Notes under the pieces: model-generated
What the model saw: the letters and a program-made list of their open reading frames with translations, nothing else
Told to the model about the DNA's origin: nothing
The model's database searches: none
Program-made: the position numbers and the translations under genes
In this document: in pieces, positions 8,976 to 55,803 of the stretch
Position numbering within the stretch: position 1 is the stretch's first letter
Layout: each line of letters starts with the position of its first letter
Source of the DNA: a virus
Virus record (IMG/VR): IMGVR_UViG_3300047160_011942
Coordinates: 1-60,296 of that record
Reading direction: 5' to 3' (one strand)
DNA length: 60,296 nt

Positions 8976-9278
8976 ATGCCGACTATGGGAACCGCCCCTC
9001 AGACCACTGACGTCGACACCGTGCTCGCGGAGCGCCGCTCGCGGTATGGGCCTTTCGTCGGGCATGCCAAGGTGACGCAGGATCTCAAACACACCATCGC
9101 TTGCGAACTCGAAGCCCGCGGCAAGATCATCTCCGATGACCAGCAAGAAGCTTTGGACATGATCTGTCACAAGATCGGGCGCATCGTGAACGGCGATCCG
9201 AATTACGCGGACTCGTGGATCGATATCGCAGGCTACGCCAAGCTGGTGTCCGACCGCCTGGAAGGGAAGACGCGATGA
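8976..9278 (+). CDS. Conserved phage protein (DUF6378-like)
   Basis: ICHKIGRIVNGDPNYADSWIDIAGYA motif recalled from a phage DUF family. The assignment is from memory only. Confidence 0.5.
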   Translation: MPTMGTAPQTTDVDTVLAERRSRYGPFVGHAKVTQDLKHTIACELEARGKIISDDQQEALDMICHKIGRIVNGDPNYADSWIDIAGYAKLVSDRLEGKTR

Positions 9279-9775
9279 TCGACTGGCTGATCCGCCGCGC
9301 GAAGCGCACGCCCTACTACCACCTCGATGGCTACATGAACCGTTGGTGGCTGGTGCCCTACAACGTGGTGATCACGCGCCGGGGCTGCGATAGCGCCGAC
9401 GGCACAGGGCCTGTCTCGTTCTGGCGCCGACCGCTCGCGTGGGTCTTCCAGCGATTCGACATCGCGATCCGCATCCACGAGCTGCTGCGTGCAGATCGTG
9501 GACGCCACCCGCACAATCATCCCTGGCCCTACTGGTCGGTCGTGCTGAAGGGCGGCTATCTGGAAGAGGTCTATGACGCGCAGGGCGCGCTCATCGGCAC
9601 GGTGTGGCATGGGCCGGGATCGGTGTTCCGTCGGCCAGCGGATTCCTGGCACAAGATCGTCGACGTCGATCCGGGGACGACCACGCTGTTCATCACCGGC
9701 AAGAAGGCCCAGACCTGGGGGTTCAACGTGGACGGCGTTGTCGTGCCGTACTACGAATACGCCGGCGAGCCTTGA
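9275..9775 (+). CDS. Cupin-like metal-binding protein (HxHxHPW family)
   Basis: ATGA overlap with the upstream gene. GRHPHNHPWPYWSVVLKGGY plus PADSWHKI resemble the two cupin His motifs. Confidence 0.55.
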   Translation: MIDWLIRRAKRTPYYHLDGYMNRWWLVPYNVVITRRGCDSADGTGPVSFWRRPLAWVFQRFDIAIRIHELLRADRGRHPHNHPWPYWSVVLKGGYLEEVYDAQGALIGTVWHGPGSVFRRPADSWHKIVDVDPGTTTLFITGKKAQTWGFNVDGVVVPYYEYAGEP

Positions 9776-9799
9776 CACCCAAGCCCTGATGCGTATCAT
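9772..9799 (+). promoter_or_regulatory. Sigma70-like promoter candidate (TTGACA-N16-TATCAT)
   Basis: TTGACA at 9772-9777 and TATCAT at 9794-9799. Sits at the start of a 530-nt poorly coding spacer preceding the transferase island. Confidence 0.45.
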
Positions 9800-9986
9800 C
9801 TGATACACACCCCTAGGAGACTGCCATGCTCCCGCTGCCTGCCTCGATGCGCTTGCCCGATGACTTGCCGAACCACGCCGGTCTTGGGCGGCCGAACCGC
9901 CTGCTGCCCCCACCCCGCGTGGTGACGGTCGGCGATTAGGACTGCTACGAAACGGATCCGGTCGGCAAGATCGATCAGTTCACGGT

Positions 9987-10049
9987 CCGCGGCCCGGTGA
10001 TCCGTGGCCCCGGTTCAACGCCACGATCGACGGTATCACCGGGCCGCGG
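9987..10049. repeat. Perfect 15-bp inverted repeat (ccgcggcccggtgat / atcaccgggccgcgg), 33-nt spacer with an inner 5-bp stem
   Basis: Read directly: arms at 9987-10001 and 10035-10049. Ends one nt before the TTG of ORF 10050. Confidence 0.7.
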
Positions 10050-10308
10050 TTGCCGCGTGACCTGACCTTGGAAGACATCGAACGCCATCTGCTGGTCGCG
10101 AAGGGCTTCCGTCGCAGCGTGCTGCGGCACGAGATGAAGGTGCGCGTGGCGCGTGTCACGGTATCCACCTCAACCGTCTTTCACGAGTCTATCGCGATCT
10201 CAAGCTTGACCGACCATCAGCTGCATGCCGCGTATCAGTGCGAAACACGAGACGACACGTTGCGCCGGCTGCTGCACAACGAACGCTTCTACCGCCAGGA
10301 GCTGAGAC

Positions 10309-10959
10309 GTGAACTCAACAAGCAAGCTACCGGACTGGCGCAACAAGACCGTGCTGATCGCAGCCTCGGGGCCGTCTCTTCCCTCACTGCTGCCCCGCGA
10401 ACCGCTCCCTTCCAATACCAGGATAGTCGCGATCAATGCGAGTTTCAGGCTGCTGCCCAACGCGAACTTGATCTTCATGGCGGATCATCGGGCGGTGCAG
10501 TGCTATCACAGCGAATGTTTGAAAAGCTGTCCCGGGAGTGCGCGATGGACAGCAACGCCGCTGATCGCGGAGCAGCTGCAATGGAATTTGCTGAGGACAA
10601 TGCATGGCGTCGGTCTATCGAAGGCTGACTTCGCGTACGCCAACGGCAACTCGGGATTCGAGGCCATCAATCTGGCCTACCTGACCGGCGCTCGCCGCGT
10701 GCTGCTCGTGGGCTTCGACATGAAGCCGGGCCCGAGCGGCGAGCGTCACTGGCACGACGACCACCCAGCGCCGCTGCTGCAGTTCCAGCCGTTCGACGAC
10801 TGGATCCGCAACGCGGTCAAGCTTGCCGCCGAGTGCACGACGGCGGGCTTGGAAGTGATCAACTGCACCCCCGGCAGCGCGCTGACCGCGTTCGCGATGG
10901 GCGACTTGAAGGAGGAACTGGAACGTGCTTGCGATCCTGAAAGAGAAGCTGATACCTAG
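10309..10959 (+). CDS. DUF115 / GT42-like (Maf- or sialyltransferase-like) Rossmann transferase
   Basis: GTG start with AGGAG 8 nt upstream. N-terminal KTVLIAASGPSL as in GNGPSL-type CMP-sugar transferases and DUF115. NGNSGFEAINLAYLTGARRVLLVGFD. Confidence 0.6.
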   Translation: MNSTSKLPDWRNKTVLIAASGPSLPSLLPREPLPSNTRIVAINASFRLLPNANLIFMADHRAVQCYHSECLKSCPGSARWTATPLIAEQLQWNLLRTMHGVGLSKADFAYANGNSGFEAINLAYLTGARRVLLVGFDMKPGPSGERHWHDDHPAPLLQFQPFDDWIRNAVKLAAECTTAGLEVINCTPGSALTAFAMGDLKEELERACDPEREADT

Positions 10960-11173
10960 CGGTCAGCGGACGATTGACGCCGTTGAACTGTGGGAGGTTC
11001 GATGGTTGTCGACATGCAACATCAGTAGTGGCGGTTTCGCTTACACGAAGGAGCATGTGGAAGCCTTCCCCACAGAGCAGGCCGCGAATGATTTCAGGCA
11101 GGCGCTGTATGCGGCCTACGCTTTGCTGAAGTCGCCTTCGGATAGAGTGAGCATGCAGAAGGTCACGCCTTAA
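10925..11173 (+). CDS. Hypothetical small protein (lower-GC segment)
   Basis: GTG-start ORF overlapping the upstream 3' end. No recognisable motif. Confidence 0.4.
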   Translation: MLAILKEKLIPSGQRTIDAVELWEVRWLSTCNISSGGFAYTKEHVEAFPTEQAANDFRQALYAAYALLKSPSDRVSMQKVTP

Positions 11174-11174
11174 A

Positions 11175-12023
11175 ATGCCCCGCGCCCTGATCCTCATTCG
11201 CGCTGAGCCTATGTACCGTAGGTCTGCATTCGTCGCAGGCCTCGAGCGGCTGGGCTACAAGATCGAGCCCTACAAGACGCCGCTCACGGGCCCGCAGATG
11301 CCGCGCATGACGCCGGAGTCGACGGACGACGTTCTCGTTCTCTGGAACCTGAAGCGCGGCTACGATGAGGCCGCGGCACGCCGGTTCGAACTGGAAGGCG
11401 GCACGGTGCTGGTGGTCGAGAACGGCTACCTCCAGAAGACGGACAAGTCCTACTACGCGATCAGCACGCACGCGCACAATGGTGCTGGCTGGTACCCCGT
11501 CGATGCGTCGATCGATCGCTTCGGCCCTCTGGGCTTCCAGCAAAAGCCCTGGCTCATGGGTCGCGAGCACATCCTGATCTGCGCCCAGCGTGGTGTGGGC
11601 TCGGCCGAGATGGCCTCGCCGCTCGATCACCACGTGCGTGCCAAGACCTCGCTTGATCGGATCTTCGGCGGCCAGCGGGAAGTGCGCATGCGCATGCACC
11701 CCGGCAATTTCGTACCGCAGGTGCCACTCGAGGCGGATCTGGCGCGGGCGTGGGCTTGCGTGGGATGGTCGACCGCCTCGGGTGTTCGCGCGCTCGTGGA
11801 GGGCGTGCCGGTCTTTCAGGATTCGCCACATTGGATCTGCGCCGACGTGGCGCGACGCGTGGCCACCCTCAAGCGCGACACTCCGATGCCGGGCTTCTCG
11901 TTCGAGAAGGTCAGCGAATCGCTGAATAGAATGAGCTGGGGGCAGTGGAAGACGGAAGAGATCGAGGCCGGAACTCCTTTCGACCTGATGCGTTCACAAG
12001 GATGGGGGCCGAGGTGGCTTTGA
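11175..12023 (+). CDS. Glycosyltransferase-like, capsule-synthesis (KpsS/KpsC)-type GT-B C-terminal fold
   Basis: VRMRMHPGN ... ACVGWSTASGVRALVEGVPVF resembles the HP... and S-t-x-G-x-EA-x-x-G-x-PV signature. Paralogous to 12196-12930. Confidence 0.6.
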   Translation: MPRALILIRAEPMYRRSAFVAGLERLGYKIEPYKTPLTGPQMPRMTPESTDDVLVLWNLKRGYDEAAARRFELEGGTVLVVENGYLQKTDKSYYAISTHAHNGAGWYPVDASIDRFGPLGFQQKPWLMGREHILICAQRGVGSAEMASPLDHHVRAKTSLDRIFGGQREVRMRMHPGNFVPQVPLEADLARAWACVGWSTASGVRALVEGVPVFQDSPHWICADVARRVATLKRDTPMPGFSFEKVSESLNRMSWGQWKTEEIEAGTPFDLMRSQGWGPRWL

Positions 12024-12205
12024 TCGCACTCCGGATCCTCGTCAGCGTGTCATTTGCCATCGGATGCGATGTGCTTTATTTTCGCTATGTCATGCGCGAT
12101 TGGCGTGTTAATTTTTCCGACTACGTATTCTTGGTCGCCTACGGTACAGTGATAGCAGTGGTCGTCTACTTCTTCCTTTTGGGAGTTCACCTACCGTGGC
12201 TCTGA
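12002..12205 (+). CDS. Small two-TM membrane peptide (AT-richer segment)
   Basis: ALIALRILVSVSFAIGCDVLYF and FLVAYGTVIAVVVYFFLLGV hydrophobic spans. Start uncertain (ATG 12002 or GTG 12014). Confidence 0.35.
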   Translation: MGAEVALIALRILVSVSFAIGCDVLYFRYVMRDWRVNFSDYVFLVAYGTVIAVVVYFFLLGVHLPWL

Positions 12206-12930
12206 TCGCGTGCCCCGTCCCCGGCAAGGCGAAGTCCGCCATGCTGTGCGCGGCCTTCATCGAAGGCGCGCCGCGTAACGCCGAGGGGTTTGTATTCGCG
12301 GGCGTGAAGGCCGGCAACCACGCGCAGTGGCTGCACGCACGCGGCATGGGCGTGGACTGGTACTACGTGGACAACGCGTACATGGACGCGACCCGCGCCA
12401 CGCACTTCCGCGTCACGAAGAACCGGCTTCAGCACGGCGGCCGTGGGCAGACCAACGGCAAGCGGTTCGCTGCGACTGGCGTCAAGATCCAACCGTGGGT
12501 GAGTCGTCCCGACGGTTACGCGCTGGTGATCCAGCAGTCGCTTGACCACTACAAGCACGTGCTGGGGCTCACGGGCGATTGGCTGGCGCCCACGGTCAAG
12601 CGGCTCGTGGACCCGATCAAGGTCCGCTTCTGGGAGGCCAACAAGCCGCAGATCGCGGACTCGTTCAAAGAGGATCTCGCCGGCGCGCGTCTGCTGGTCA
12701 CGCACACGTCGGCCGCAGCCGTAGAGGCTGTGCTGGCCGGTGTGCCGGTGTACTGCGAACCGGAGTGCGCGGCGTGGGACTGGGCGATCGGCAGGAACCT
12801 GATCGCGTGGGATCAACACAATGCAGGGTTCGACGATCGCCTCAACTGGGCGGGAGTCCTCTGCGATCAGCAGTGGACCGTCAACGAAATGAAAGCAGGC
12901 ATGGCATGGCGAACGCTCAACCCGACGTGA
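12196..12930 (+). CDS. Glycosyltransferase-like, paralog of 11175-12023
   Basis: GTG start. PWVSRPDGYALVIQQS / VRFWEANKPQ / LLVTHTSAAAVEAVLAGVPVY align by eye with the upstream paralog. Confidence 0.6.
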   Translation: MALIACPVPGKAKSAMLCAAFIEGAPRNAEGFVFAGVKAGNHAQWLHARGMGVDWYYVDNAYMDATRATHFRVTKNRLQHGGRGQTNGKRFAATGVKIQPWVSRPDGYALVIQQSLDHYKHVLGLTGDWLAPTVKRLVDPIKVRFWEANKPQIADSFKEDLAGARLLVTHTSAAAVEAVLAGVPVYCEPECAAWDWAIGRNLIAWDQHNAGFDDRLNWAGVLCDQQWTVNEMKAGMAWRTLNPT

Positions 12931-13478
12931 AGGGCCGCTGGTTCGGCGGAGACCGCACGATCGAGCAGCAGATGATGGGCCTCGATCGGCTGTTCGCCGA
13001 TGTCGAAGGTAAGAGCGTGCTGGACGTCGGTTGTGCCGAAGGGCTCATCGCCATGGAGTGCGCCAAGTCGGGCGCGGCGATGGTGCGCGCCGGCGAGATC
13101 CGCAAGGACGCTGTGGCCTGGGCGCGCCACCACCGCGAGCATGACAAGCTGCTCAAGCACAAGGACATCATTTTCTGGGAGCAGGACGCCAACGTCTGGC
13201 AGCCGCAGGCGAGCTACGACATCGTGCTGATGCTGGCCGTGCTGCACAAGCTTGAGGATCCGAGTGCGGCCTGCAAGCGCTTCGCCCGCGTGGCGCGCGA
13301 TCTGGTCGTCATCCGGTTGCCACCGGGACACGCACCCACTATCATCGATAGCCGTTCAGGGAACGTTCCGCACGACATCGACACCGCGGTACTGACCAGC
13401 GGTTTCTACCTCGAACATGCCGGCTACAACGGCCCGTTCGGTGAGTGGGTCGGCTACTACCGGAGGCGCAGTGCCTAA
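12906..13478 (+). CDS. Class I SAM-dependent methyltransferase
   Basis: Motif I VLDVGCAEG, then DIVLMLAVLHKLEDP (post-II/III). Internal ATG chosen because the upstream part of the ORF is Arg/Gly junk overlapping the previous gene. Confidence 0.8.
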   Translation: MANAQPDVKGRWFGGDRTIEQQMMGLDRLFADVEGKSVLDVGCAEGLIAMECAKSGAAMVRAGEIRKDAVAWARHHREHDKLLKHKDIIFWEQDANVWQPQASYDIVLMLAVLHKLEDPSAACKRFARVARDLVVIRLPPGHAPTIIDSRSGNVPHDIDTAVLTSGFYLEHAGYNGPFGEWVGYYRRRSA

Positions 13479-13980
13479 AGACCTGATCGCGGAATACAGC
13501 CGCATCGCGAAGCTCGGGGGCAACTTCCGGGGTTTGGCGGTGCTGCAGCACGCGGACGTCATCGCCGAGTTGTGCCGGCAGTACCACCCCAAGACGCTGC
13601 TCGACTACGGCTCGGGGGCCGGTGACCAGTACAAGATCCACAAGGTGCACCACCGCTGGGGTGTCAAGCGCATCGACATCCGCTGCTACGACCCGGCGTT
13701 CAAGAATACCGCCAGTCGCCCGGACGGCAAGGTGTTCGACGCGATCATCTGCTCGGACGTGCTGGAGCACCTACGCGAAGCCGATGCGATGGAGGCGATC
13801 GAATGGATGGTGGCGCACGCACGCAAGTTCGTGTGGCTGAGCGTGTGCTGTCGTCCTGCCAAGAAGCTCTTCGATGACGGCGAGAATATGCATGTCACCG
13901 TCAGGCCATTCGAGTGGTGGAGGTCCCGGATACCCCGAATGAGCAGTGAACCCGAGACCTACGTCACGGAGACGCCATGA
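13471..13980 (+). CDS. Class I SAM-dependent methyltransferase (second)
   Basis: GTG after GGAGG. LLDYGSGAGDQY (motif I), DAIICSDVLEHL. Confidence 0.75.
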   Translation: MPKDLIAEYSRIAKLGGNFRGLAVLQHADVIAELCRQYHPKTLLDYGSGAGDQYKIHKVHHRWGVKRIDIRCYDPAFKNTASRPDGKVFDAIICSDVLEHLREADAMEAIEWMVAHARKFVWLSVCCRPAKKLFDDGENMHVTVRPFEWWRSRIPRMSSEPETYVTETP

Positions 13981-14267
13981 GCAAGCCGTTGATCGTGGCC
14001 GCCGTGTTGCGTCCCGGAACGTTCATCTTCCAGCCGAACCCCGATGGTCTGGGCCACATTTTCCAGATGGATCGCGAATGGGCTTTCGCGTTCACCGAAG
14101 ACCCCGCCACGCTCAGTCCGGAGATGCAACAGAAGGTGCTGATCACGGGTGCGATCCTCTACATGGCCAAGCAGCTCGGCCTCGTGCTGGGATCGTCCGA
14201 CGAAGCAAGCCCGGATCTCGATGCCGAGCGCGCGGCGGCCGACATCATCGCCACCGCCAAACGATGA
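13977..14267 (+). CDS. Hypothetical small protein
   Basis: ATGA-coupled ORF. No motif recognised. Confidence 0.5.
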   Translation: MSKPLIVAAVLRPGTFIFQPNPDGLGHIFQMDREWAFAFTEDPATLSPEMQQKVLITGAILYMAKQLGLVLGSSDEASPDLDAERAAADIIATAKR

Positions 14268-15016
14268 CCTACGAGGCCGTCACCACGTGCAGTGCCCAAG
14301 GCTGGCAGGAGTACGGCTGCCGGATGGTGGCCACCTACCGCGAGTTCTGGCCAGCATCCGTGCCCCTCGTGCTGTACTCCGAAGGCATGATTCGCAACGA
14401 GCAACCGCGCTCGATGCCGCCCTGGCTGTTCGCGTTTCGCGAGCGCCACGCCCGCAGCCCCAAGGCTCGCGGCTATCCGGTGGGCAGCTACAACTACCGC
14501 TTCGATGCGATCCGCTTCGCCTACAAGACGGCCGCCGTGATCGACACGCTCGAACGCTCGACGGCGGACACCATGATCTGGATCGACGCCGATACGGTGA
14601 CGCATGCGCCCGTCAGCGAAGGCTTCCTTGACGAACTGGCGCCTACCGGTTCCGAGGCCTTGTCGTGGCTCAACCGCGCGAAGAACTACCCCGAGTGCGG
14701 CTTCTACATGATGCAGCGCCAGCACCCTGCCATCAAGGCGCTGCTGCGCCATTGGAAGGAGCTGTACCTGCACGACACCTTGTTCCACCTGCCCGAGTGG
14801 CATGACAGCTACGTGCTGGCCGAACTCGTCAAGCTGCTGCAGGTGCCGTGGAAGTCCATCTCGGGCGCCGGCATCGCCACCGGGCACCCTTTCATCAACG
14901 GTCCGTTGGGCGCGGTGATGGATCACCTGAAGGGGCCACGCAAGGGGTACGGCAAGAGTAAGCTTCACGATCTGAAAGTGAAGCGCAACGAGGCCTACTG
15001 GAGGAACGCGACGTGA
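14264..15016 (+). CDS. GT-A-like glycosyltransferase with DxD motif
   Basis: ATGA-coupled internal ATG. MIWIDADTV (DxD), ECGFYMMQ. The upstream part of ORF 13946 is out-of-context Arg-rich sequence. Confidence 0.6.
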   Translation: MTYEAVTTCSAQGWQEYGCRMVATYREFWPASVPLVLYSEGMIRNEQPRSMPPWLFAFRERHARSPKARGYPVGSYNYRFDAIRFAYKTAAVIDTLERSTADTMIWIDADTVTHAPVSEGFLDELAPTGSEALSWLNRAKNYPECGFYMMQRQHPAIKALLRHWKELYLHDTLFHLPEWHDSYVLAELVKLLQVPWKSISGAGIATGHPFINGPLGAVMDHLKGPRKGYGKSKLHDLKVKRNEAYWRNAT

Positions 15017-15696
15017 GAGTCATCATCGGCGCCGACAGCCGCGAGCCAGAAGCCACGCGTGTGGCGCTGAAGACGTTGCGCGAGACCTCGGGCATCGAGG
15101 GTGAGGTGCTCAACGTGCCGAAGCTGCGCGACCAGGGCCTGTTCACACGCGTGGAGGACACCCGCGGCCGCCGCTACGACTTCGCGAGCCAAGCCTACTG
15201 CTCCACGGAGTTCGCGAATGCGCGGTTCCTCGTGCCGCTGCTTGGGTCAGGCTTCGTGCTGTTCACGGACTGCGATGTGGTCTTCCAGCGCAATGTCCGC
15301 GACTTGCTCGTGGAGGTGAAGACACAGCACGCTGTGTCGGTCGTGAAGCACCGATCCGCCCAGCAGGGGTATGGCTTCCTCAAGATGGACGCTCAACCGC
15401 AGCAGGAGTACAGCCGCAAGAACTGGTCGAGCGTGATGCTGTTCAACTGCGATCATCCGGCCAACCGTCGACTATCGCTACGCGACGTCAATGAGCGGCC
15501 GGGCCGCGATCTGCACGCCTTCTACTGGCTCAACGACCACGAGATCGGTGCACTCGATCCATGCTGGAACTGGCTGGTGAACGCGCAAGACAAGCCTGCT
15601 GGCAAGGGCATCGCGCACTTCACTCTCGGCGGCCCCTTCACGCCGGGATGGCAGGGCGCCTCCCATGACGAGATCTGGCTGGAGGCAGCGAAGTGA
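15013..15696 (+). CDS. GT8-like glycosyltransferase
   Basis: GTGA-coupled. VLFTDCDVVF (DxD), NWSSVMLFN (NSG-V-M-L-like), AHFTLGGPFTPGW (H-x-x-G-x-x-KPW-like). Confidence 0.7.
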   Translation: MRVIIGADSREPEATRVALKTLRETSGIEGEVLNVPKLRDQGLFTRVEDTRGRRYDFASQAYCSTEFANARFLVPLLGSGFVLFTDCDVVFQRNVRDLLVEVKTQHAVSVVKHRSAQQGYGFLKMDAQPQQEYSRKNWSSVMLFNCDHPANRRLSLRDVNERPGRDLHAFYWLNDHEIGALDPCWNWLVNAQDKPAGKGIAHFTLGGPFTPGWQGASHDEIWLEAAK

Positions 15697-16025
15697 ATAT
15701 CGTCTCGCTCGCCGAAGCCCGCGATGCGCGGGACCCTCACTCGAGTGGCCGGGCCATCTGTTGCGCGTGCGGTCACGAGTGGATCGCGGTCGTGAAAAAC
15801 GCACCGCAGGGCGAACGCATCACATTCTTCGATTGCCCGAAGTGCGGCACGATCCGAGGACAGTTCAAGGATCAGTTTGGCGTGCCTAAAGATACGTTGG
15901 TGTTTGAGTGCGGCGACTGCGGGTCGACGCTCTTTCGGGTCTACAAGCACCCTGCGGATGGCACCGTGTGTCTGCTGTGCGCGGGCTGCGGCTCCGATCG
16001 CAACGCCATGGATCTGTTTTCGTGA
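15693..16025 (+). CDS. Multi-CxxC zinc-ribbon protein
   Basis: CCACG, CPKCG, CGDCG and CAGCG pairs. GTGA-coupled. Confidence 0.55.
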   Translation: MNIVSLAEARDARDPHSSGRAICCACGHEWIAVVKNAPQGERITFFDCPKCGTIRGQFKDQFGVPKDTLVFECGDCGSTLFRVYKHPADGTVCLLCAGCGSDRNAMDLFS

Positions 16026-16513
16026 GCGCCTATGCCAAAGTCAAAGAATGGAGAGCGGCCAACAAAGAGAAAGTCGCAGCTCAGGCTCGTCGGTATCGCG
16101 CCAAACACTCCGAACGGATAAGAGAAATTCGTAAACGGTATCGAGAACGTAGCCGGGAGGAACGCTTGCCTCGTGAAGCTGAACTGAAACGCGCACAACG
16201 CGTTCGAGACCCTGAGGGTGAACAACGCCGACAACGGGAGTTCAAAGCGCGTCAGCGAGCCCTGAAGGTTGAGACCGCAGGTCGACCGCGCCCAGTGTTG
16301 TGTGAGATCTGCACAACTGATACCATCGGACGCGTTGTATTTGACCACGATCATGCGACCGGTCAGTTTCGCGGTTGGATTTGCGATCGATGCAACAAAG
16401 TGCTGGGGCTCATGAAAGACTCACCCTCTCTGCTCCGTGCGCTTGCAACCTACTTGGAGAACTGCCATGGCCAAGATGAAAGCAGCGACTCGCAACAAGC
16501 TCCCGGCGTCTGA
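16022..16513 (+). CDS. Recombination endonuclease VII-type HNH endonuclease (free-standing, homing-like)
   Basis: CEIC...VFDHDHATGQFRGWICDRCNKVLG (Endo VII signature). By eye AT-richer than its flanks. Confidence 0.8.
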   Translation: MSAYAKVKEWRAANKEKVAAQARRYRAKHSERIREIRKRYRERSREERLPREAELKRAQRVRDPEGEQRRQREFKARQRALKVETAGRPRPVLCEICTTDTIGRVVFDHDHATGQFRGWICDRCNKVLGLMKDSPSLLRALATYLENCHGQDESSDSQQAPGV

Positions 16514-18112: not shown

Positions 18113-18190
18113 CTGGGTGTAATGTCAGCCCGGTAGACGGCCGCGCTTGGAACGCGGAGGCCGCAGGTTCGAATCCTGCCACCCAGACCA
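18113..18190 (+). tRNA. tRNA-Pro (anticodon UGG), CCA encoded
   Basis: Acceptor ctgggtg/cacccag. Anticodon arm ccgcg-cTTGGaa-cgcgg (TGG at 18148-18150). T arm gcagg-ttcgaat-cctgc. By hand the D arm needs a 3-nt connector. Confidence 0.7.
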
Positions 18191-18219
18191 GTTCACGATC
18201 ACGATATTGACGCCTCACC

Positions 18220-18303
18220 GGGGCGTTATACCGCTATGGACACGGGCCGGGCTGTAACCCCGGCGCTTCGGCAGTCTAGGTTCGATTCCTAGGCGCCCCA
18301 CCA
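18220..18303 (+). tRNA. tRNA-Tyr (anticodon GUA), long variable arm, CCA encoded
   Basis: Acceptor ggggcgt/gcgcccc. Anticodon arm ccggg-ctGTAac-cccgg. Variable arm cgcttcggcagt. T arm ctagg-ttcgatt-cctag. Confidence 0.7.
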
Positions 18304-18310
18304 GTTCAAC

Positions 18311-18396
18311 GGATCGTGCCGAGCAGGGCTCAAAACTGTTTCGAAAGCAGCGGCGGTCAGAGATGGCCGATGGTTCGATTCCTTCACGATCCGCCA
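18311..18396 (+). tRNA. tRNA-Ser (anticodon CGA), long variable arm, CCA encoded
   Basis: Acceptor ggatcgt/acgatcc. Anticodon loop ttCGAaa on a 4-bp stem. 17-nt variable region. T arm gatgg-ttcgatt-ccttc with one mismatch. Confidence 0.6.
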
Positions 18397-18402
18397 ATCA
18401 CC

Positions 18403-18493
18403 GGGCTTGTGGCCGAGGGGCCGAAGGCAACGGGTTGCTAACCCGTAGGGTCGTTTCGCGGCCCCGCACGTTCGAATCGTGTCAAGCCCGCCA
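18403..18493 (+). tRNA. tRNA-Ser (anticodon GCU), long variable arm, CCA encoded
   Basis: Acceptor gggcttg/caagccc. D arm gcc...ggc. Anticodon arm acggg-ttGCTaa-cccgt. Long variable arm. T arm gcacg-ttcgaat-cgtgt. Confidence 0.75.
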
Positions 18494-19525: not shown

Positions 19526-19842
19526 GGTGAGTCCTTCTTGCGCAGCCAGCCCGTCAGGATCGCCCCAAACTGGACCTGCCGCACGCCGTCCATGACGGCG
19601 GCGAAGGCCACGAGCCCGCCGGCACCACACGCAAACACGATCGCCGAGGCGATGCGCACGGAATCCACGTGCAGATAGTCCACCAGCGCCGGGCCAGCGA
19701 AGATCGCCAGCAAGAACCCCAGCAGCAAGTTCGCTACCCGCTCGAGCAGCGTCGTTCCTGGGATGGCCTTCAACCCCAGCAGCGCGCCGGCAAAGGATGC
19801 CACGTAGGGGTTTCCGATCCATCCATCGTTCGGGGGGTTCAT
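19522..19842 (-). CDS. Holin-like membrane protein
   Basis: ATGA-coupled to the next membrane gene. Several TM spans and a charged C-terminus (WLRKKDSP). Confidence 0.6.
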   Translation of the reverse strand: MNPPNDGWIGNPYVASFAGALLGLKAIPGTTLLERVANLLLGFLLAIFAGPALVDYLHVDSVRIASAIVFACGAGGLVAFAAVMDGVRQVQFGAILTGWLRKKDSP

Positions 19843-22800
19843 GGCTTGGGTTCCTGGTCGTCCGCCTCGGCCCCCTTCGCCGCGGCATTGTTGTGGAAGC
19901 GCCCATCCGACCCTCTCGGATGGTGTACCTCGAACCGCGCGCGTGCCGCGGCGTCGACTACGGCATCCGCGGGTTGTCCGCGTTGCCCAGCCCCTGCACC
20001 GGCTTGACTTTGTTGACCAGCGGCTTCGTGGGCTGCGCCACCTTGGCTGCGGGCTTGAGCACCGCCTTGGGCGCTGCCGGTGGTTTCACCTGTTGCACCT
20101 GCGTTGCCTTCTGCACCGCCGGCTGCTTGGCCACCAGCGGCTTGATCGGCTTTGCTGGGACCGCGGATGACCCAGCGCCCGTTTTCGAGGACGGGCCGGT
20201 CGACCCGTTCTGCGCCACCGACGCCGACGGCTTGAGCGCCCGGGCCGCTTTCAGCAGCACCGATCCCTTGGGTTGCATGATGCTCTCCTAGTTGAACCTC
20301 GCGCAGCCGCTTGGCCACGTCAGGGGTGTAGTGCCGCCCGGCGAGAATCGCCTCGGTGGCTGCTGCATCGACATCATCGGCCGCGCGGATCTGGTGCAGC
20401 TGCTCCACGTGCTCCTGGCCCAGCCCGAATTGTCGCAGCACCTCGTCGGTGTTGACGTAGGTCGCCTGCCCCGTCGGGATCGGCTTGGCTGGCGCCGCGG
20501 GCGTGAGGTCAGGCTGCCCCTCGGTGGCCGTGCCCGTGGGCAGCGGCTTGGTGGGCGCGGCCGCGCCGGCGATGGGGGGCTGGCCCTCCTTCACCTCGCC
20601 CACGGGCGGGCGCTCGGGCGGGTCGAGCAGGTCGGCGCGGTTCATCAGCTCCTGCCGCGTCGTGGGGTCAGCCATGCCCATGGCGGCGGTACGGATCTCG
20701 TCGGCCGCAGCCTTGGCCTTCTCCGTCGTCTCGCGGTTCTTGGCATCCTTCAGCACGCGCGCATGTGACTTCTCGAGCGCGTCCCGCACGATGGGCGACT
20801 GCGTACCCTGCAACGCGGCGTGGATCTCGTCGGCCTTGGCCTGCTCGTCGGGGGTGAGCTTCGGGCCGGGCTTTGGCGCCGGAGCGGGCGCGGCAGGCGC
20901 CGGTGCGCTCTGTTGCTGGCGGGCTTCGACCGCGCCCGGCGTGTGCATGGCAGCGTTCGACGCTTCGTCGGCCGCCACTTCGTGGGGCGCGCCCGTCACC
21001 ATGGCATCCGGCAGATCCGGGCGGCCGGGCACAGCGGGAATCTGGGAGCCGGCGCCGCGCGCCACCGCACCCAGTTCCTCGCCGCCCGGTGGACCGTTCG
21101 GCTGCACGCGGCGCTGGTTCTCGAGGAACGCGTCCAGCGCGTCCACGCCTTCGGGCTTCGGCGCCCCGCCCGCGCCGGGTGCCGTCTCCCAGTCGGGCGT
21201 GAGGTCGCCCAGCGGCCCGGGGCCGGGTGCGGCCGGCGCGCCTGCAGTCGGCGCATCGTAGGGCCGTAGCATGAGTTCGGGCTCGGCAGCGGGCGCTGCG
21301 GCAGGGGCGCCGCCGATCATCCGCTGCGTGGCTCGGCCGCCCACGGCGTTGTAGGCGCGGCTGGCCGCCACGCGCCCCAGCGCCGTGGCGCCGGCCGTGT
21401 GCGCGCCCGCGAGCAGGTCGACCGCGCCGAGACCTGCCACCTGCGCCACGCTGTGCGTCAGGTCGTGGGGCGGCGAGGCGATCAGCTTGCCGACCTTGGC
21501 GAGATCGCCGATCGGGCCGCCGTTGTCCAGCGCCATGAAGCGCTTGCCCACCTGCGTGCGGTTCACGATGTCGATGAGCCGGCCGGGCTGGATGAGACCG
21601 TCGACCGACTTGCCCACGTCGCCGGACTTCACCAGCATCATGCCGTAGGCATACCCCCGATTGAAGTTCTGGTACTGCTGCCGCTGCGCGGCATCAGGGA
21701 TGGCGTTCTCCGCGACCTCCTGCACCGCGTCTTGCAAATCGCTGAGCCGACTCACGACGTTCGAGTTGCCGCTGCTGCGCAGATCCTCGTTAATCGCCGT
21801 GTTCCAGTCGCGGAAATACGAGCCATCGATCGTGCCGTCGGCGTTGATGTGGTCCTGCAGGTCCTGCACGTAGTTCGGGATGACGCGCTCGGCGCCATCC
21901 ACGCCTTTGGCCGCGGCTTCCTTGGCAAGCGGCCCGGCCACCGCCATGACGTCCTCGGCGGGCAACTGCACGCCCGCCATGATCTTGGCCGCGCCCTCGC
22001 CGTTCGTCTTCATCATCTGCGACAACGCCGTGGACGTCATGCGTGTGGCGCTGGACGTGGGGTCGATCACGTGGATGAGATTCTGGTTGAAGGCCAGTGT
22101 GTTCTGGTGGTCGATCGCCGTCGCACCCCCTCCGGCCGCCTGCCCGACATTGCTGGCGACGGTCTTCGCCGCGCCTTCAGGCAGCACGCGATCTGGCGGG
22201 ATCGTCATCTTGTGCGGGAACTGATCAGCTAGCGCCGCGGTGGCGGCGAGCCCCTCGTCAGGCTTCGGAAGCACCTTGGCGAGGCCCGCGGCCGCGGTGT
22301 CCGCCACCGCATTGCCTGCAGCCTTTGCCGCCGGCGCGACCTTCGCTGCTACGCGTCCAGCGGCCTGCGCCGCGGGCGCCGCAGCTGCCGACAGTGCATC
22401 GCCGCCCGCCTGCATCGCCGGCTCCATGCCGGGAAGACCCGCAGGGAACAGCCCGCTGATGGCGGGGAGCCACTTCTTGATGGGCTCGCTCTCGGCGATC
22501 TGCTGCGTGTAGTCCTCGCCGGTGGGCGTCGACTTGATCGACAGACCGGGGAACGGTCCAGCGCCTTCGGCCAGCGCGCGATTGACCGCGCTTCCTGCTT
22601 GATTGAAGCCTTCCTCTGCGGTCTGCGAGGGGTTGACCATACCCGTGGCACCCGGCGGCAGTGGGCCCGGCGTCAGCGCCACGTTCATGTTGTGGGCGAT
22701 ACCCTGCACGAAGCCAGCAGCGCCACCGGCAAGCGCCGGAAACGACGACAGGATTCCTCGAGCGGTGTTCAACCCGGCTTCGACCGCGCCATGGATCTTC

Positions 22801-22952
22801 TGCCCCAGCGACGGTTCCTGGTAGTGGGGCTGAGCGGCGATCTGCGCAGCCGAGCCGGGCACGCCAGCTTCGCGCGGGTCGACGACCGGCGCAGGAGGGT
22901 CCGGCACGAACCGGCCGGCGCTGGGCGAGGGGGCGTCTGGGATGAACGGCAT
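19839..22952 (-). CDS. Giant virion-associated protein (1037 aa), low-complexity Ala/Pro/Gly/Gln-rich; putative internal/ejection protein
   Basis: Start ATG 22952, one nt after the upstream stop. Long PAAPAPAP and AG-rich tracts. Position between the tail genes and the lysis cassette. Confidence 0.65.
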   Translation of the reverse strand: MPFIPDAPSPSAGRFVPDPPAPVVDPREAGVPGSAAQIAAQPHYQEPSLGQKIHGAVEAGLNTARGILSSFPALAGGAAGFVQGIAHNMNVALTPGPLPPGATGMVNPSQTAEEGFNQAGSAVNRALAEGAGPFPGLSIKSTPTGEDYTQQIAESEPIKKWLPAISGLFPAGLPGMEPAMQAGGDALSAAAAPAAQAAGRVAAKVAPAAKAAGNAVADTAAAGLAKVLPKPDEGLAATAALADQFPHKMTIPPDRVLPEGAAKTVASNVGQAAGGGATAIDHQNTLAFNQNLIHVIDPTSSATRMTSTALSQMMKTNGEGAAKIMAGVQLPAEDVMAVAGPLAKEAAAKGVDGAERVIPNYVQDLQDHINADGTIDGSYFRDWNTAINEDLRSSGNSNVVSRLSDLQDAVQEVAENAIPDAAQRQQYQNFNRGYAYGMMLVKSGDVGKSVDGLIQPGRLIDIVNRTQVGKRFMALDNGGPIGDLAKVGKLIASPPHDLTHSVAQVAGLGAVDLLAGAHTAGATALGRVAASRAYNAVGGRATQRMIGGAPAAAPAAEPELMLRPYDAPTAGAPAAPGPGPLGDLTPDWETAPGAGGAPKPEGVDALDAFLENQRRVQPNGPPGGEELGAVARGAGSQIPAVPGRPDLPDAMVTGAPHEVAADEASNAAMHTPGAVEARQQQSAPAPAAPAPAPKPGPKLTPDEQAKADEIHAALQGTQSPIVRDALEKSHARVLKDAKNRETTEKAKAAADEIRTAAMGMADPTTRQELMNRADLLDPPERPPVGEVKEGQPPIAGAAAPTKPLPTGTATEGQPDLTPAAPAKPIPTGQATYVNTDEVLRQFGLGQEHVEQLHQIRAADDVDAAATEAILAGRHYTPDVAKRLREVQLGEHHATQGIGAAESGPGAQAVGVGGAERVDRPVLENGRWVIRGPSKADQAAGGQAAGGAEGNAGATGETTGSAQGGAQARSQGGAAHEAAGQQSQAGAGAGQRGQPADAVVDAAARARFEVHHPRGSDGRFHNNAAAKGAEADDQEPKP

Positions 22953-22953
22953 G

Positions 22954-44857: not shown

Positions 44858-44954
44858 GCGGTGAGCCGGGATCTCCAGCGGCGGCGTGCGGTAGGCGGGA
44901 AGCTGGCGCGCCAGATCGGCGACCGACGGGTTGAACCGCCGATCGCTGTTGCCA

Positions 44955-45290
44955 TCAGGCACTGGGCGCGACAGGCGGCGTGGCGACCGCCGCGGCCGCT
45001 GCCTGCGCCACGGACGTCGGGTCGACCGGCGGCGCAGCCGCGGGCGTGGCCGCCCCGAGCGGTGAAGCCGCCAGGGCCTTGACCGCGGCGGCCGCAGCAT
45101 CCTCGGGCGTGGCGGGCGCCGGCGCGTCGGGGTCGTGCCGAGGCTTCTGGGCCTGCTGCAGTTGCTGGTTGATCTCGGCAATCGCGGGCGCCGCGATCTT
45201 GTAGGGGGCTTCCTGCAACGCCATGTTGATGGCGTTCAGGCACTGCGGCGACAGATTCAGATTGAAGGTGCCGGGGATGGGTTGCTGCAC
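44955..45290 (-). CDS. Hypothetical protein (Ala/Pro-rich C-terminus)
   Basis: ORF between TerS and TerL. Protein-like N-terminal half. Confidence 0.4.
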   Translation of the reverse strand: MQQPIPGTFNLNLSPQCLNAINMALQEAPYKIAAPAIAEINQQLQQAQKPRHDPDAPAPATPEDAAAAAVKALAASPLGAATPAAAPPVDPTSVAQAAAAAVATPPVAPSA

Positions 45291-54227: not shown

Positions 54228-54809
54228 TCACCCCGCCATCAGCGCGCCGTCCACACCTTGCGCGTTCCACGGCCAGCGAGACGGCATCGCTTTTAGCGGC
54301 ACGCCTTCGTCATAACCCAGCATGAGCGGGTGACGGGGCTGCGCGATGCCACCTGTTTTCTTGCGCACCCGCGCCTTGTCCTCGTTCCAGGCGAAGACCA
54401 TCGGCGTGTGCCCGGACTTCCAGACCTGCTCGAGCACGGCCGCAGCGCGGCGCACCTGGGGCCAGCGTTCCACGTTCGCGCCCCACGCGCACACCACCGT
54501 CGCCACGCTCGGGTCGCGCAGCGCCGCCGCGATCCACAAGTCGGTGTCCTCGCCGACCGGCCAGCCGGCCGCTTTCAGCTCGGCCGGCTTCGTGGCCCGG
54601 AAGGCGTACAGGTTGACCACCGAGAAGCCACCCCAGCCGAGGCGCTCGGCGAAGCCATAGAGCTTGCGAATGGTGGCGTCATCGGTCGTGGCGTCCGCGG
54701 TCGACGGATTCAGTAGGATGACCACCGCCGTCGGCTTCGTCACGTCCCAGCGCCGGACGAGCAGGTAGCGAAACGCCTTGTCCGGGGAGAGGATCGCTGA
54801 CTTTTCCAT
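54228..54809 (-). CDS. DUF1643 family protein
   Basis: RYLLVRRWD...VVILLNPSTAD...NLYAFRAT signature. ATG 54809 with AAAGG SD. Confidence 0.7.
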   Translation of the reverse strand: MEKSAILSPDKAFRYLLVRRWDVTKPTAVVILLNPSTADATTDDATIRKLYGFAERLGWGGFSVVNLYAFRATKPAELKAAGWPVGEDTDLWIAAALRDPSVATVVCAWGANVERWPQVRRAAAVLEQVWKSGHTPMVFAWNEDKARVRKKTGGIAQPRHPLMLGYDEGVPLKAMPSRWPWNAQGVDGALMAG

Positions 54810-54929
54810 GAGCAAACCTTTCGATGCACACGCGGCAACGTCGCGCACCGCGTACCTGCTTGGAGCCCAGCACGGGCCGCTGCTGCGAGCAGCCCGCGCA
54901 GTTGAAGGTGAAGGCACCGATGCCTGCGC

Positions 54930-55302: not shown

Positions 55303-55803
55303 CTATTTCTCTGAATAAAACCGCCTGAGCAATTGTTGCACTGGCGGGTCGGCAAGATAAACGGACAAATTCTTGGCGTATTCTTCTGGAGTCATTCCGC
55401 GTCCACGGATGAACCCCTCAATCGTATTGCATACACGGCATAGCAATCCACGATTTTCGTTCGTAGCATGATCGTGATCGATGCAGGTGTTACCCTCCAA
55501 AGGACGCTTGCAAATGGCGCAGACGCCACCTTGAAGCACAACTAACGCAGCGAACATCTCCGGAGTCATCCCGTAAAGACGTTTACGCATGTTGATGAGC
55601 ATCTGAGCCTGTCGTTCCGGGGTGTAGCGACCGTTATCCCATTCGCGATACGCTGCAGTTTTGGTGTAACGTGCAAGGTAATCCTTCATGTATGCTTGCC
55701 GATCGGGACGCTTCCGATATTGACGATCGTATGCATTCGCCTTTTCACGATGGGTTGCGTACTCTTCGGGCGTCATTTCGGATTTCTTTTTCTTTACCAC
55801 CAC
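55303..55803 (-). CDS. Recombination endonuclease VII-type HNH endonuclease (second copy)
   Basis: CAICKRPL...CIDHDHATNENRGLLCRVCNTIEG. GTG start. By eye about 48% GC against GC-rich flanks. Confidence 0.8.
   Translation of the reverse strand: MVVKKKKSEMTPEEYATHREKANAYDRQYRKRPDRQAYMKDYLARYTKTAAYREWDNGRYTPERQAQMLINMRKRLYGMTPEMFAALVVLQGGVCAICKRPLEGNTCIDHDHATNENRGLLCRVCNTIEGFIRGRGMTPEEYAKNLSVYLADPPVQQLLRRFYSEK

Follow-up and report, generated by a model that had tools for sequence, protein, structure and literature searches.

A mobile glycosyltransferase and methyltransferase cassette of phages with a possible role in virion-protein glycosylation

Which molecule would a phage decorate with several sugar transferases of three folds and two methyltransferases? 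The question is raised by a block of ten genes (O1 to O10) in a complete viral genome of 60.2 kb (IMG/VR record IMGVR_UViG_3300047160_011942; the window, that is the whole stretch of 60,296 nt that was analysed). An earlier note had proposed that these enzymes build a methylated oligosaccharide on some acceptor, and this is the natural product of one co-oriented, overlapping block of this kind. We tentatively favour glycosylation of virion proteins from host CMP- and UDP-sugars as the role of the cassette. Its most likely product would be an O-methylated oligosaccharide made during lytic growth and carried by a particle protein, the putative acceptor.

Layout of the cassette and its flanks

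All ten genes were found in the ORF list of the window, preceded by a promoter-like element, a hairpin and a further small ORF:

9772..9799, + strand: promoter-like TTGACA-16-TATCAT, 11/12 matches to a sigma-70-like consensus, at the stop codon of the cupin gene
9987..10049, + strand: hairpin, 15-nt perfect inverted repeat (9987-10001 / 10035-10049) in a 533-nt spacer
10050..10308, + strand: small ORF absent from the list of the earlier note, coding-type third-position GC
10309..10959, + strand: O1, DUF115/MptE-like (Maf/GT42-type) transferase; GPSL and HWHxDHP motifs; PHROG 4603, PF01973
10925..11173, + strand: O2, 82 aa, function unknown; unconserved, weak third-position GC
11175..12023, + strand: O3, GT-B-like, retaining beta-Kdo transferase fold (AF2 model and Foldseek)
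12002..12205, + strand: O4, possible 67-aa two-TM peptide in a 49%-GC insert
12196..12930, + strand: O5, paralogue of O3 (BLASTP 9e-7, 24% over 204 aa)
12906..13478, + strand: O6 (MT1), class I SAM methyltransferase; Methyltransf_11, _23 and _25 above cut-offs
13471..13980, + strand: O7 (MT2), second class I SAM methyltransferase; PHROG 24759, 5e-19
13977..14267, + strand: O8, 96 aa, function unknown; unconserved, third-position GC 0.81
14264..15016, + strand: O9, GT-A glycosyltransferase with a GT6-like fold; invariant D108-x-D110
15013..15696, + strand: O10, GT8-like nucleotide-diphospho-sugar transferase; invariant F-x-D86-x-D88, VVKH, H202..G206

The overlapping arrangement described earlier was confirmed, nine of the ten junctions being negative (O1-O2 -35, O3-O4 -22, O4-O5 -10, O5-O6 -25 and O6-O7 -8 nt; -4 nt each for O7-O8, O8-O9, O9-O10 and O10 to the next gene) and O2-O3 being +1. 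Third-position GC of 0.77-0.87 backs the coding of O1, O3, O5, O6, O7, O9 and O10. Among the small ORFs the signal was of coding type for O8, weak for O2 (0.68) and ambiguous for O4, and no homologue of any of them was found across the 97 related loci compared. O4, the sole predicted TM peptide of the cassette, lies in a 172-nt insert between O3 and O5 (GC 0.494) that is missing from relatives; O3 and O5 abut in the relative L003. O4 is doubtful as a gene.

The element at 9772-9799, previously noted as promoter-like, is a candidate promoter of the cassette; consensus sites at this match level occur at 3 per 10 kb vs 1.7 expected. The leader had also been called structured, which holds for one strong hairpin (9965-10075, z = -3.99) but not for the leader overall (511 nt, z = -0.6). 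No T-run was seen 3' of the hairpin at 9987-10049. In the frame of the small ORF, third-position GC is 0.72-0.83 up to about 10315 and is then lost, and the frame stays open until 10628, within O1 (ORF 10050-10628); no homologue was found among related loci. The flanking SNF2, cupin-like (PHROG 4786), zinc-ribbon and Endo VII genes are all present as reported, the last with a GC of 57% vs 65% for the genome. The neighbours of the cassette in the window are replication genes (DNA polymerase, SNF2).

Enzyme families and a proposed reaction scheme

The first gene of the cassette is always O1. Its assignment as a DUF115/GT42-like transferase was upheld by PHROG 4603 (8e-31) and by PF01973, which O1 itself matches under the gathering score (2.4e-4) and which 9 of 11 family members match (best 1.5e-7). 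G21, N43, D59, H147 and H152-P153 are invariant in the family alignment.

The AF2 model of O3 (pLDDT 94) gave KpsC (GT107), WbbB (GT99) and KrkA (GT140) as top Foldseek matches (E 1e-6 to 4e-4, probability 1.0, TM 0.44-0.52), in agreement with the earlier KpsC/KpsS-like call for the two paralogues. A 'Capsule polysaccharide biosynthesis protein' of a Tetraselmis virus was also matched (TM 0.67-0.71). O3 retains (K/R)xHP, the motif that binds CMP, as well as the Gln of QxxxD (R-x-H175-P176 and Q138, both invariant in the family alignment), and the tandem paralogues recall the two modules of KpsC. Unlike these enzymes, the O3 family has an invariant Gly in place of the nucleophile Asp of QxxxD and the O5 family does not conserve that Asp, and both proteins are single-domain, about 250-280 aa long and phage-restricted. 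Sequence similarity to KpsC, WbbB or KrkA was undetectable (PDB profile search empty, no Pfam model), and a Pfam domain was found in none of 164 O3 homologues. O5 keeps [DE]-N-x-Y and a C-terminal QW..E..G, has R-x-W/K in place of R-x-H-P and weakly matches DUF6716, a 'putative glycosyltransferase'; it may lack catalytic activity or depend on another donor. O3 and O5 are a new family with the beta-Kdo-transferase fold, with RxHP in O3 and the nucleophile Asp in neither. The real chemistry may therefore differ from that proposed below.

Both methyltransferase calls were borne out. The nearest named models of O6 are O-methyltransferases (UbiG and the mycofactocin oligosaccharide methyltransferase MftM), whereas O7, assigned through its PHROG, matched Methyltransf_23 below cut-off (8.6e-5); it is kept in relatives and in Caulobacter phages. 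O9, previously recognised as a DxD GT-A protein, gave a model (pLDDT 97) that matched BoGT6a, alpha3GalT and ABO transferases (E about 1e-8), with a Pfam domain in 0/257 homologues. O10, the conserved closing gene, is GT8-like as suggested, with weak GT8/Nucleotid_trans matches and PHROG 28018 at 1e-40; it has more than 6,599 relatives, some of them named 'lipopolysaccharide biosynthesis glycosyltransferase' by JGI.

We infer the following scheme of acceptor, donors and reaction order. O1, the proposed priming enzyme, would start the chain by transferring a CMP-activated ulosonic acid to the acceptor; CMP-Kdo would be the most economical donor, as all Gram-negative hosts make it. O3 would then lengthen the chain, possibly helped by O5, O9 and O10 would attach hexoses from UDP-sugars, and O6 and O7 would O-methylate the sugars. 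As the earlier note had stated, nucleotide-sugar synthesis genes were found neither in the cassette nor in the genome, consistent with supply from the host pools of CMP-Kdo and UDP-sugars.

Distribution of the cassette and its possible acceptor

The cassette is not unique to the window. A synteny comparison, which the earlier note had called for, found the order O1-O3-O5-MT-MT-[GT9 or O9]-(Methyltransf_21)-O10 in at least 215 IMG/VR contigs and on four phage backbones, with cultured Caulobacter jumbo phages such as CcrColossus and CcrBL9 among the carriers. The block is missing in 23 of the 29 SNF2-anchored relatives with enough downstream sequence, which justifies the label 'island' given to it; it is accessory and horizontally mobile. 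The variable slot holds a GT9-like gene in 55 loci and O9 in 8, and relatives carry extra genes (sugar C-methyltransferase, DegT aminotransferase, UDP-galactopyranose mutase, radical-SAM). Such swapping and addition of genes is typical of exposed surface glycans.

Of 96 loci, 37 have the cassette in the head module, with portal or major capsid genes on one side and head-closure or tail-tube genes on the other. In L016 and L017 the capsid gene directly precedes it, with head-closure and tail genes beyond. Since the cassette is so often inside head-building genes, a particle protein is the most likely target, and the earlier statement that none of the known paradigms fits was too strong. Elsewhere it lies just upstream of TerS-TerL-portal (3-4 loci) or, in the Caulobacter jumbo phages, is flanked by a tail protein gene and the endolysin gene. 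Against virion glycosylation, the window and 35 loci with a window-like backbone have the cassette with replication genes, behind a sigma-70-like promoter.

At least 18 loci have a gene for a collagen-repeat fibre as the immediate upstream neighbour of O1. In a reverse search from the C-terminal domain of the fibre, O1, O3 or O5 was found no more than 3 kb downstream in 39 of 66 loci, and phages like Pseudomonas phage D3 have solitary O1-like genes in their head modules. The association partly reflects shared ancestry because the head-module collagen loci belong largely to one portal lineage. The window holds no collagen-like gene, and no acceptor was therefore identified here. This would suit a product bound to neither protein nor DNA, a free or lipid-anchored oligosaccharide that could become part of the particle or infected cell or shield either of them. 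The proteins structurally closest to O3 also point that way, since they use a glycolipid acceptor (PMC12887879); KpsC and KpsS make poly-Kdo on lyso-phosphatidylglycerol. However, the cassette lacks membrane-association helices and export components, the O1 family contains protein-glycosylating Maf enzymes, and the links to head modules and fibre genes speak for a virion protein, making such a product highly improbable.

Host envelope remodelling is a likelier rival, though still an unlikely one. Here the substrates would be lipid-linked glycans such as LPS core or capsule linker, modified on the cytoplasmic side of the inner membrane, and the outcome would be lysogenic conversion, superinfection exclusion or progeny that are kept from adsorbing to debris. 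The enzymes belong to families that synthesise LPS core and capsule (the KpsC-like fold, GT9 in relatives, the JGI name among O10 relatives), the pair of O9 and Methyltransf_21 is known from one bacterial polysaccharide locus, the window has a host-type promoter, and assembly of LPS core needs no dedicated flippase. Two carriers are prophages (L011, L015), and an integrase lies 0.6-1.6 kb upstream of the cassette in three relatives (L003, L023, L024), a position typical of lysogenic conversion that counts against virion glycosylation. The description of the phage as apparently virulent holds only to the extent that no integrase was found in its complete genome. On the other hand, the 37 head-module loci embed the cassette in a late operon normally silent in lysogens, and the Caulobacter jumbo phages, which we take to be virulent, carry it between tail and lysis genes. 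The cassette contains no GtrA/GtrB, Wzx/Wzy or acyltransferase-type membrane proteins, and its one predicted TM peptide is unconserved. O3 homologues are almost confined to phage contigs: they occur on at least 215 IMG/VR contigs, and the nine GTDB matches are mostly on phage-length contigs (about 50-58 kb) or at loci with phage structural genes.

The replication-gene neighbourhood of the window would also fit a role in DNA hypermodification, in which a modified base of the phage genome would carry the methylated glycan. Pyle et al. (10.1101/2023.12.21.572611) describe glycosyltransferase clusters of this type that depend on C5-MT/5mYOX or ThyS. Known phage clusters attach one to three sugars (hexose, HexNAc, heptose) to 5hmC and use secondary transferases similar to GT8 WaaJ/WaaO; they too can adjoin structural genes, which weakens the argument from head-module placement. 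In one relative (L015) a C5 DNA methylase and an adjacent cupin homologue precede the cassette by 3.8 kb, but this is the only one of about 100 cassette loci with a C5-methylase. No C5-methylase, TET/JBP or ThyS-type hydroxymethylase was found among the scanned ORFs of the complete genome, whose only DNA methylase is of the N6/N4 type. Structure search placed Kdo transferases at the top for O3 and GT6 enzymes for O9, rather than JGT, TarP or T4 beta-GT, and the fibre linkage has no DNA rationale. We consider DNA an improbable acceptor.

The earlier note had also likened the cupin-SNF2 neighbourhood to base J logic, an analogy that we reject. The cupin family has the classical HxH..E..H residues and no TET/JBP match. 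The analogy fails because cupin and cassette are not linked in other phages: three genes (dGTPase-like, integrase and one more) stand between them in L003, and no SNF2 or cupin marker was detected at head-module or Caulobacter loci (6-10 kb fetched per side).

Comparison with known systems

Collagen-like surface proteins are glycosylated elsewhere: BclA of Bacillus is a collagen-like exosporium glycoprotein and the fibres of Mimivirus are glycosylated, with clusters that include methyltransferases and aminotransferases for unusual sugars. Relatives of the cassette likewise place a collagen-repeat surface fibre beside a glycan-synthesis cluster, but only in one lineage outside this window, and with repeats that are charged (GEK/GDP/GER) rather than Thr-rich.

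With Maf and CstII-type GT42 enzymes (PF01973/DUF115) O1 shares the DUF115 core (GPSL, G-x-D) and the HP motif. Members of this family use CMP-nonulosonic acid donors, and Maf enzymes, the flagellin glycosyltransferases, glycosylate protein directly, which fits a priming role for O1. Unlike Maf, O1 is much shorter (about 200 aa) and falls under the Pfam gathering cut-off.

The clusters of Pyle et al. resemble the cassette in having several glycosyltransferases related to LPS enzymes, a host sugar pool and GT8-like secondary transferases; the cassette differs in lacking a C5-methylase, 5mYOX or ThyS partner and in transferases that do not resemble JGT, TarP or T4 beta-GT.

In mycobacteriophages, glycans are found on capsid and tail-tube subunits (Freeman et al. 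2023, summarised in PMC12619734). The present case differs from the one outlined in that summary: the phages are of Proteobacteria type, the enzymes are wholly different (Maf/GT42-, Kdo-transferase-, GT6- and GT8-like), the window cassette lies outside the structural module, and the glycan is a predicted one. Nevertheless, relatives carry the cassette in the head module beside a capsid or head-fibre gene, and phage-encoded glycosyltransferases decorate virion proteins with host nucleotide sugars in the summarised system, as we propose here. A methylated sugar chain on a particle protein, the putative target, would be previously undescribed in phages of Gram-negative bacteria.

Genome setting and layout of the cassette

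The window comes from a JGI metagenome assembly. Its first 97 nt (1-97) are repeated exactly at 60200-60296, which shows that the genome is complete and closes into a circle of about 60,199 bp (~60.2 kb); its GC content is 65%. Megablast against cultured phages returned a sole match of 129 nt, and no close cultured phage was found. Relatives of the window were binned with Burkholderiales, which makes a betaproteobacterial host likely. The cassette analysed here is the block of ten ORFs, O1 to O10, at 10309-15696.

Layout of the genome and of the cassette
0.4-9.8 kb, + strand: replication genes (PD-(D/E)XK/DUF2800, Enc34-type ssDNA-binding protein, DNA polymerase, SNF2, DUF6378)
10309-10959, + strand: O1, predicted glycosyltransferase
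11175-12023, + strand: O3, predicted glycosyltransferase
12196-12930, + strand: O5, predicted glycosyltransferase
12906-13478, + strand: O6, methyltransferase MT1
13471-13980, + strand: O7, methyltransferase MT2
14264-15016, + strand: O9, predicted glycosyltransferase
15013-15696, + strand: O10, predicted glycosyltransferase
within the cassette, + strand: O2, O4 and O8, small ORFs
15908-16513, 55303-55803, 56728-57081 and 57273-57722: four homing-endonuclease-type genes (two Endo VII, one HNH, one His-Me/HNH_3)
18113-18493: tRNA cluster (Pro-TGG, Tyr-GTA, Ser-GCT) between the early and structural modules
19-47 kb, - strand: structural module (SU10-like portal, TerL, TerS)
51-60 kb, - strand: second early block (primase, N6/N4 DNA methylase, AEP-like primase, RNA ligase, several HNH or Endo VII genes)

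Several features of this genome lie apart from the cassette. The adjacent ORFs at 409-1035 and 1019-1879 both match the Pfam family DUF2800/PD-(D/E)XK, the first over its N-terminal part (1-164) and the second over its C-terminal part (170-343), and the pair (409-1879) is a split or frameshifted nuclease gene. The 958-aa large-terminase ORF (42305-45181, - strand) matches the TerL of a relative in two pieces, at ~42.3 kb and ~44.6 kb, suggesting that it bears a large insertion, possibly an intein or a homing-endonuclease domain. A weak fourth tRNA-like Rfam match falls at 18310-18393. Grouped on the - strand of the second early block are an AEP/TOTE-type primase-polymerase domain protein (55794-56384), an RNA ligase (58062-58643) and a DUF1643 protein (54228-54917), an unusual accessory set. 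At 57% GC, the Endo VII gene adjoining the cassette lies below the genome value of 65%; the longest ORF of this gene shares 118 nt with the zinc-ribbon gene.

All ten ORFs that had been claimed for the cassette are present, and neighbouring ORFs overlap or adjoin, with successive gaps of -35, +1, -22, -10, -25, -8, -4, -4 and -4 nt, then -4 nt into the zinc-ribbon gene. The seven enzyme ORFs and O8 are backed by third-position GC, whereas the signal of O2 is weak and that of O4 ambiguous. O2, O4 and O8 were rejected as conserved components of the cassette, having no homologues in related loci. The promoter-like element described in the earlier note matches 11 of 12 consensus positions. Its 'structured leader' stands only in part: there is one strong hairpin, whereas a globally structured leader is ruled out by a whole-leader z of -0.6. 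An Rfam search of the leader gave only a chance miRNA-like match on the hairpin.

Two further stretches are of note in themselves. An ORF at 10050-10628 has clear coding-type GC3 (0.72-0.83) over its first 86 codons (10050-10308), and its frame stays open until a stop at 10628, 320 nt inside O1. No homologue of this ORF was found in related loci; it could reflect a frameshift or assembly indel, an overlapping gene, or a frameshift-reached N-terminal extension of O1. Between O3 and O5, which abut in relatives, lies a 172-nt insert of 49% GC (12024-12195) carrying the putative two-TM peptide O4, a weak promoter-like site (12054-12082) and terminator-like hairpins (12058-12108). This insert looks like a small foreign insertion.

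Transferases and methyltransferases of the cassette

O3 and O5 are paralogues, and neither has a Pfam, NCBIfam or PDB sequence match; among the 164 database relatives of O3, none carries a Pfam domain. An AF2 model of O3, built from a 55-sequence alignment (pLDDT 94, pTM 0.91), has the modified GT-B fold of KpsC, WbbB and KrkA (GT99/GT107/GT140). In a Foldseek search against the PDB, KpsC, WbbB and KrkA made up nearly all of the top 28 matches to this model (E 1e-6 to 4e-4, probability 1.0, TM 0.44-0.52), and its viral structure matches include a paralogue from Caulobacter phage CcrColossus and 'Capsule polysaccharide biosynthesis' proteins of Tetraselmis virus.

Retaining Kdo transferases are defined by two motifs: QxxxD, in which the Asp is the nucleophile and the Gln binds the Kdo carboxylate, and (K/R)xHP, which binds CMP and is common to the sialyltransferase families GT29, 38, 42, 52 and 80 (PMC12887879). 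In a family alignment across 13 loci, the (K/R)xHP motif is present in the O3 family as an invariant R-x-H175-P176; it is absent from the O5 family, which has R-x-W/K-x where HP is expected. As read from sequence alignment only, QxxxD is absent from both: the O3 family keeps the Gln in Q138-R-G-x-G142, with an invariant Gly at the Asp position, and the O5 family keeps it in Q-S-x, with no conserved Asp. Both share [DE]-N-x-Y (E82 in O3) and a C-terminal QW..E..G. O3 and O5 are a new family that has the Kdo-transferase fold and lies outside GT99, GT107 and GT140. Judging by these motifs, O3 probably binds a CMP-sugar, and O3 and O5 probably do not use the Asp double-displacement mechanism.

The motif-based fold calls of the earlier note proved essentially right on profile, alignment and structure-model evidence. 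O1 matches PHROG 4603 (8e-31) and, below the cut-off of 34.6 bits, PF01973 (DUF115/MptE-like; E 2.4e-4, 21.4 bits); 9 of the 11 members of its family match PF01973 at E <= 0.01, the best at 1.5e-7. Its invariant residues are the GPSL-Gly, N43, D59, G-x-D and HWHxDH152-P153, the last of which contains the HP motif of CMP-sugar transferases, a motif common to GT42 (PMC12887879). With the RxHP of O3 and this HP motif of O1, two, possibly three, of the cassette transferases look CMP-ulosonic-acid dependent. Because no sugar-activation genes are present, host CMP-Kdo would be the most economical donor.

O6 is a bona fide class I SAM methyltransferase, with Methyltransf_11, _23 and _25 above the Pfam cut-offs; O7 falls below the Pfam cut-off and has the same class I fold by PHROG (24759, 5e-19). 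O9 has no Pfam, PHROG, NCBIfam or PDB-profile match, and none of its 257 relatives has a Pfam domain. Its model (pLDDT 97) is a GT-A fold that matches BoGT6a, alpha3GalT and ABO GTA/GTB (E ~1e-8, probability 1.0, TM ~0.5), with an invariant D108-x-D110. O9 thus has the GT6 fold and is not a GT6 member by sequence. That O9 is a diverged form of the GT9 protein of relatives was rejected, as BLASTP finds no similarity. O10 gave weak matches to GT8 (E 0.11) and Nucleotid_trans (E 0.017); two of the nine members of its family match GT8 at 8.5e-4, and FxDxD (D86-x-D88), VVKH and H202..G206 are invariant. PDB sequence and profile searches with O1, O3, O9, O10 and the cupin-like His-cluster protein (9275-9775) near the SNF2 gene gave no meaningful matches, and NCBIfam had none for any glycosyltransferase.

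Distribution of the cassette and its possible acceptors

The cassette is a widespread, mobile module and is not unique, contrary to what had been claimed. Relatives of O3 were found by profile scan in at least 215 IMG/VR contigs and in 9 GTDB contigs, and the cassette sits in four phage backbones, with cultured carriers in Caulobacter. By tblastn, Caulobacter jumbo phages (CcrColossus gp126-131, CcrBL9 and others) were found to carry O1, O3, O5-like, O10, MT2-like and GT9 genes, arranged in this order between a tail protein gene and an endolysin gene. A panel of marker genes searched in 96 loci gave the canonical order O1-O3-O5-MT1-MT2-[GT9 or O9]-Methyltransf_21-O10, in which the variable slot is filled by GT9 at 55 loci and by O9 at 8, the window being one of the 8. 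Some relatives have nucleotide-sugar tailoring genes inserted in the cassette (sugar C-methyltransferase, DegT aminotransferase, UDP-galactopyranose mutase, radical-SAM/SPASM), and the pairing of O9 with Methyltransf_21 is likewise seen in a bacterial locus for polysaccharide and sulfation. The description as an island is sound: a search anchored on SNF2 gave 29 relatives that extend far enough downstream, and 23 of them are without the cassette, which is therefore an accessory island. In this group of phages with DNA polymerase and SNF2, genomes bearing the cassette measure about 55-61 kb and those without it about 42-54 kb.

Genomic context of the cassette in 96 loci
Inside head modules: 37 loci
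Window-like, after DNA polymerase and SNF2: 35 loci
Immediately upstream of TerS-TerL-portal: 3-4 loci
Caulobacter jumbo phages: 2 loci
Too short to classify: 18 loci

The clearest head-module cases are the related loci L016 and L017, in which TerL, portal, protease and capsid genes precede the cassette and head-closure, tail-completion and tail-tube genes follow it.

A cassette of this kind might remodel the host envelope, as the LPS/capsule flavour of its enzymes, its prophage carriers and an integrase 0.6-1.6 kb upstream of it in L003, L023 and L024 would suggest. We nevertheless consider envelope remodelling unlikely, since it fits poorly with placement in head operons and with presence in the Caulobacter jumbo phages, which we take to be virulent. 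No Pfam, PHROG or NCBIfam match was found to the parts of a seroconversion cassette of the GtrABC, Wzy or O-acetylase kind (integral-membrane flippase, bactoprenol glucosyltransferase, polymerase, acyltransferase); O4, at 67 aa and not conserved, is the sole TM candidate. In L003 (7429-8550), L023 and L024, which are close relatives, the position that in the window is taken up by a mere 533-nt spacer holds a tyrosine integrase with a dGTPase-like gene; temperate members therefore belong to the lineage of the window. The spacer itself is not a remnant of the L003 integrase module, to which tblastn shows no similarity.

Glycan hypermodification of phage DNA is real and recently described, and it uses LPS-like transferases (Pyle et al., 10.1101/2023.12.21.572611). 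As a role for this cassette it nonetheless seems improbable, more so than envelope remodelling, because no C5-methylase, TET-type oxygenase or ThyS-type enzyme turned up among the ORFs scanned in the complete genome, the cupin is not TET-like, and a C5-methylase accompanies the cassette in L015 only. The Pfam scans, which took in all but a few small ones of the non-structural ORFs, found none of the makers of 5hmC or 5hmU (C5-MT with 5mYOX/TET, ThyS-type hydroxymethylase) and only an N6/N4 methylase. Nor did the base-J logic suggested earlier hold up. The cupin carries HxH..E..H residues and its PHROG match is 'cysteine dioxygenase'; it matches neither TET nor any PDB entry, and in other backbones it shows no linkage to the cassette. 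On these grounds, and with TET and C5-methylase absent, a base J-type system (JBP/TET oxygenase with SNF2 and JGT) was rejected. In L015 (707-2757; a Rubrivivax MAG prophage), a homologue of the window's cupin (29% identity) comes directly after a C5 DNA methylase (PF00145), the only place with a cupin beside a cytosine methylase; this pairing might hint that the cupin has a DNA-related role of its own, apart from the cassette. That the product is a lipid or a free glycan we regard as very unlikely.

Possible virion glycosylation and comparison with known systems

We infer, tentatively, that the cassette may well glycosylate a virion protein. This reading best unifies the contexts, given late-operon placement in three independent backbones, linkage to a fibre gene, serotype-like diversification and a precedent in mycobacteriophages. 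The glycosyltransferase genes lie in or next to virion structural genes in 37 of the 96 loci and in the Caulobacter phages; in the window itself they follow the replication genes. In one head-module lineage, at least 18 loci have a gene for a collagen-repeat protein directly ahead of O1. The protein has collagen repeats above the Pfam threshold and a conserved C-terminal domain, with a weak CBM_5_12 match and more than 472 IMG/VR relatives. A reverse search from this domain found O1, O3 or O5 within 3 kb in 39 of the 66 loci with room downstream, where O1 often stood alone after a head-closure gene, and phages like Pseudomonas phage D3 likewise have solitary O1-like genes in their head modules. 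The fibre linkage and these solitary genes support O1 as a priming enzyme on a virion component. Part of the association between collagen gene and cassette is lineage inheritance, and no collagen-like acceptor was found in the window or in the Caulobacter loci.

The same C-terminal domain (L007, L008, L054, L058 and others) also ends ORFs annotated 'portal protein' in Stx-converting phages, such as NC_049943.1 (37579-37944), and in Salmonella phage FSL SP-016, which suggests a portal- or neck-associated fibre domain. In the window, two very large virion proteins of 1046 and 910 aa (19839-25686, - strand) have long Pro/Ala/Ser/Thr-rich low-complexity stretches; one has PHROG/LPD38-type relatives, and both genes converge on the cassette. 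As candidate glycan acceptors of this phage they are speculative.

No description of this phage glycan cassette, or of the O3/O5 family, was found in the literature searched. The cassette is widespread and diversifying, and its target is probably the virion of Gram-negative phages. A joint reading, which we hold to be doubtful as a whole, would be that Gram-negative phages carry a swappable, 'serotype-like' cassette that gives their particles an O-methylated glycan resembling the LPS inner core (Kdo, then heptose or hexose), the target in one lineage being the collagen-like head fibre. The glycan would be drawn wholly from host LPS precursor pools. A Maf-like protein glycosyltransferase would start it, and a new family with the beta-Kdo-transferase fold would extend it; being without the canonical Asp nucleophile, this family would use a different catalytic mechanism.

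To our knowledge, virion glycosylation has been demonstrated experimentally only in actinobacteriophages; a proteobacterial phage glycan cassette would, if the virion reading is true, extend it to Gram-negative systems. A virion glycan would matter for the stability of the phages, for host recognition, for their recognition by the immune system in therapy, and for adhesion, and the Caulobacter phages offer a test bed in which virion, DNA and host-envelope acceptors could be told apart. As an unannotated enzyme family, O3 and O5 bear on glycosyltransferase mechanism and on CAZy classification. Compared with the known Kdo and sialyl transferases, O3 and O5 are without the nucleophile, whereas O3 keeps the CMP-binding motif of those enzymes.
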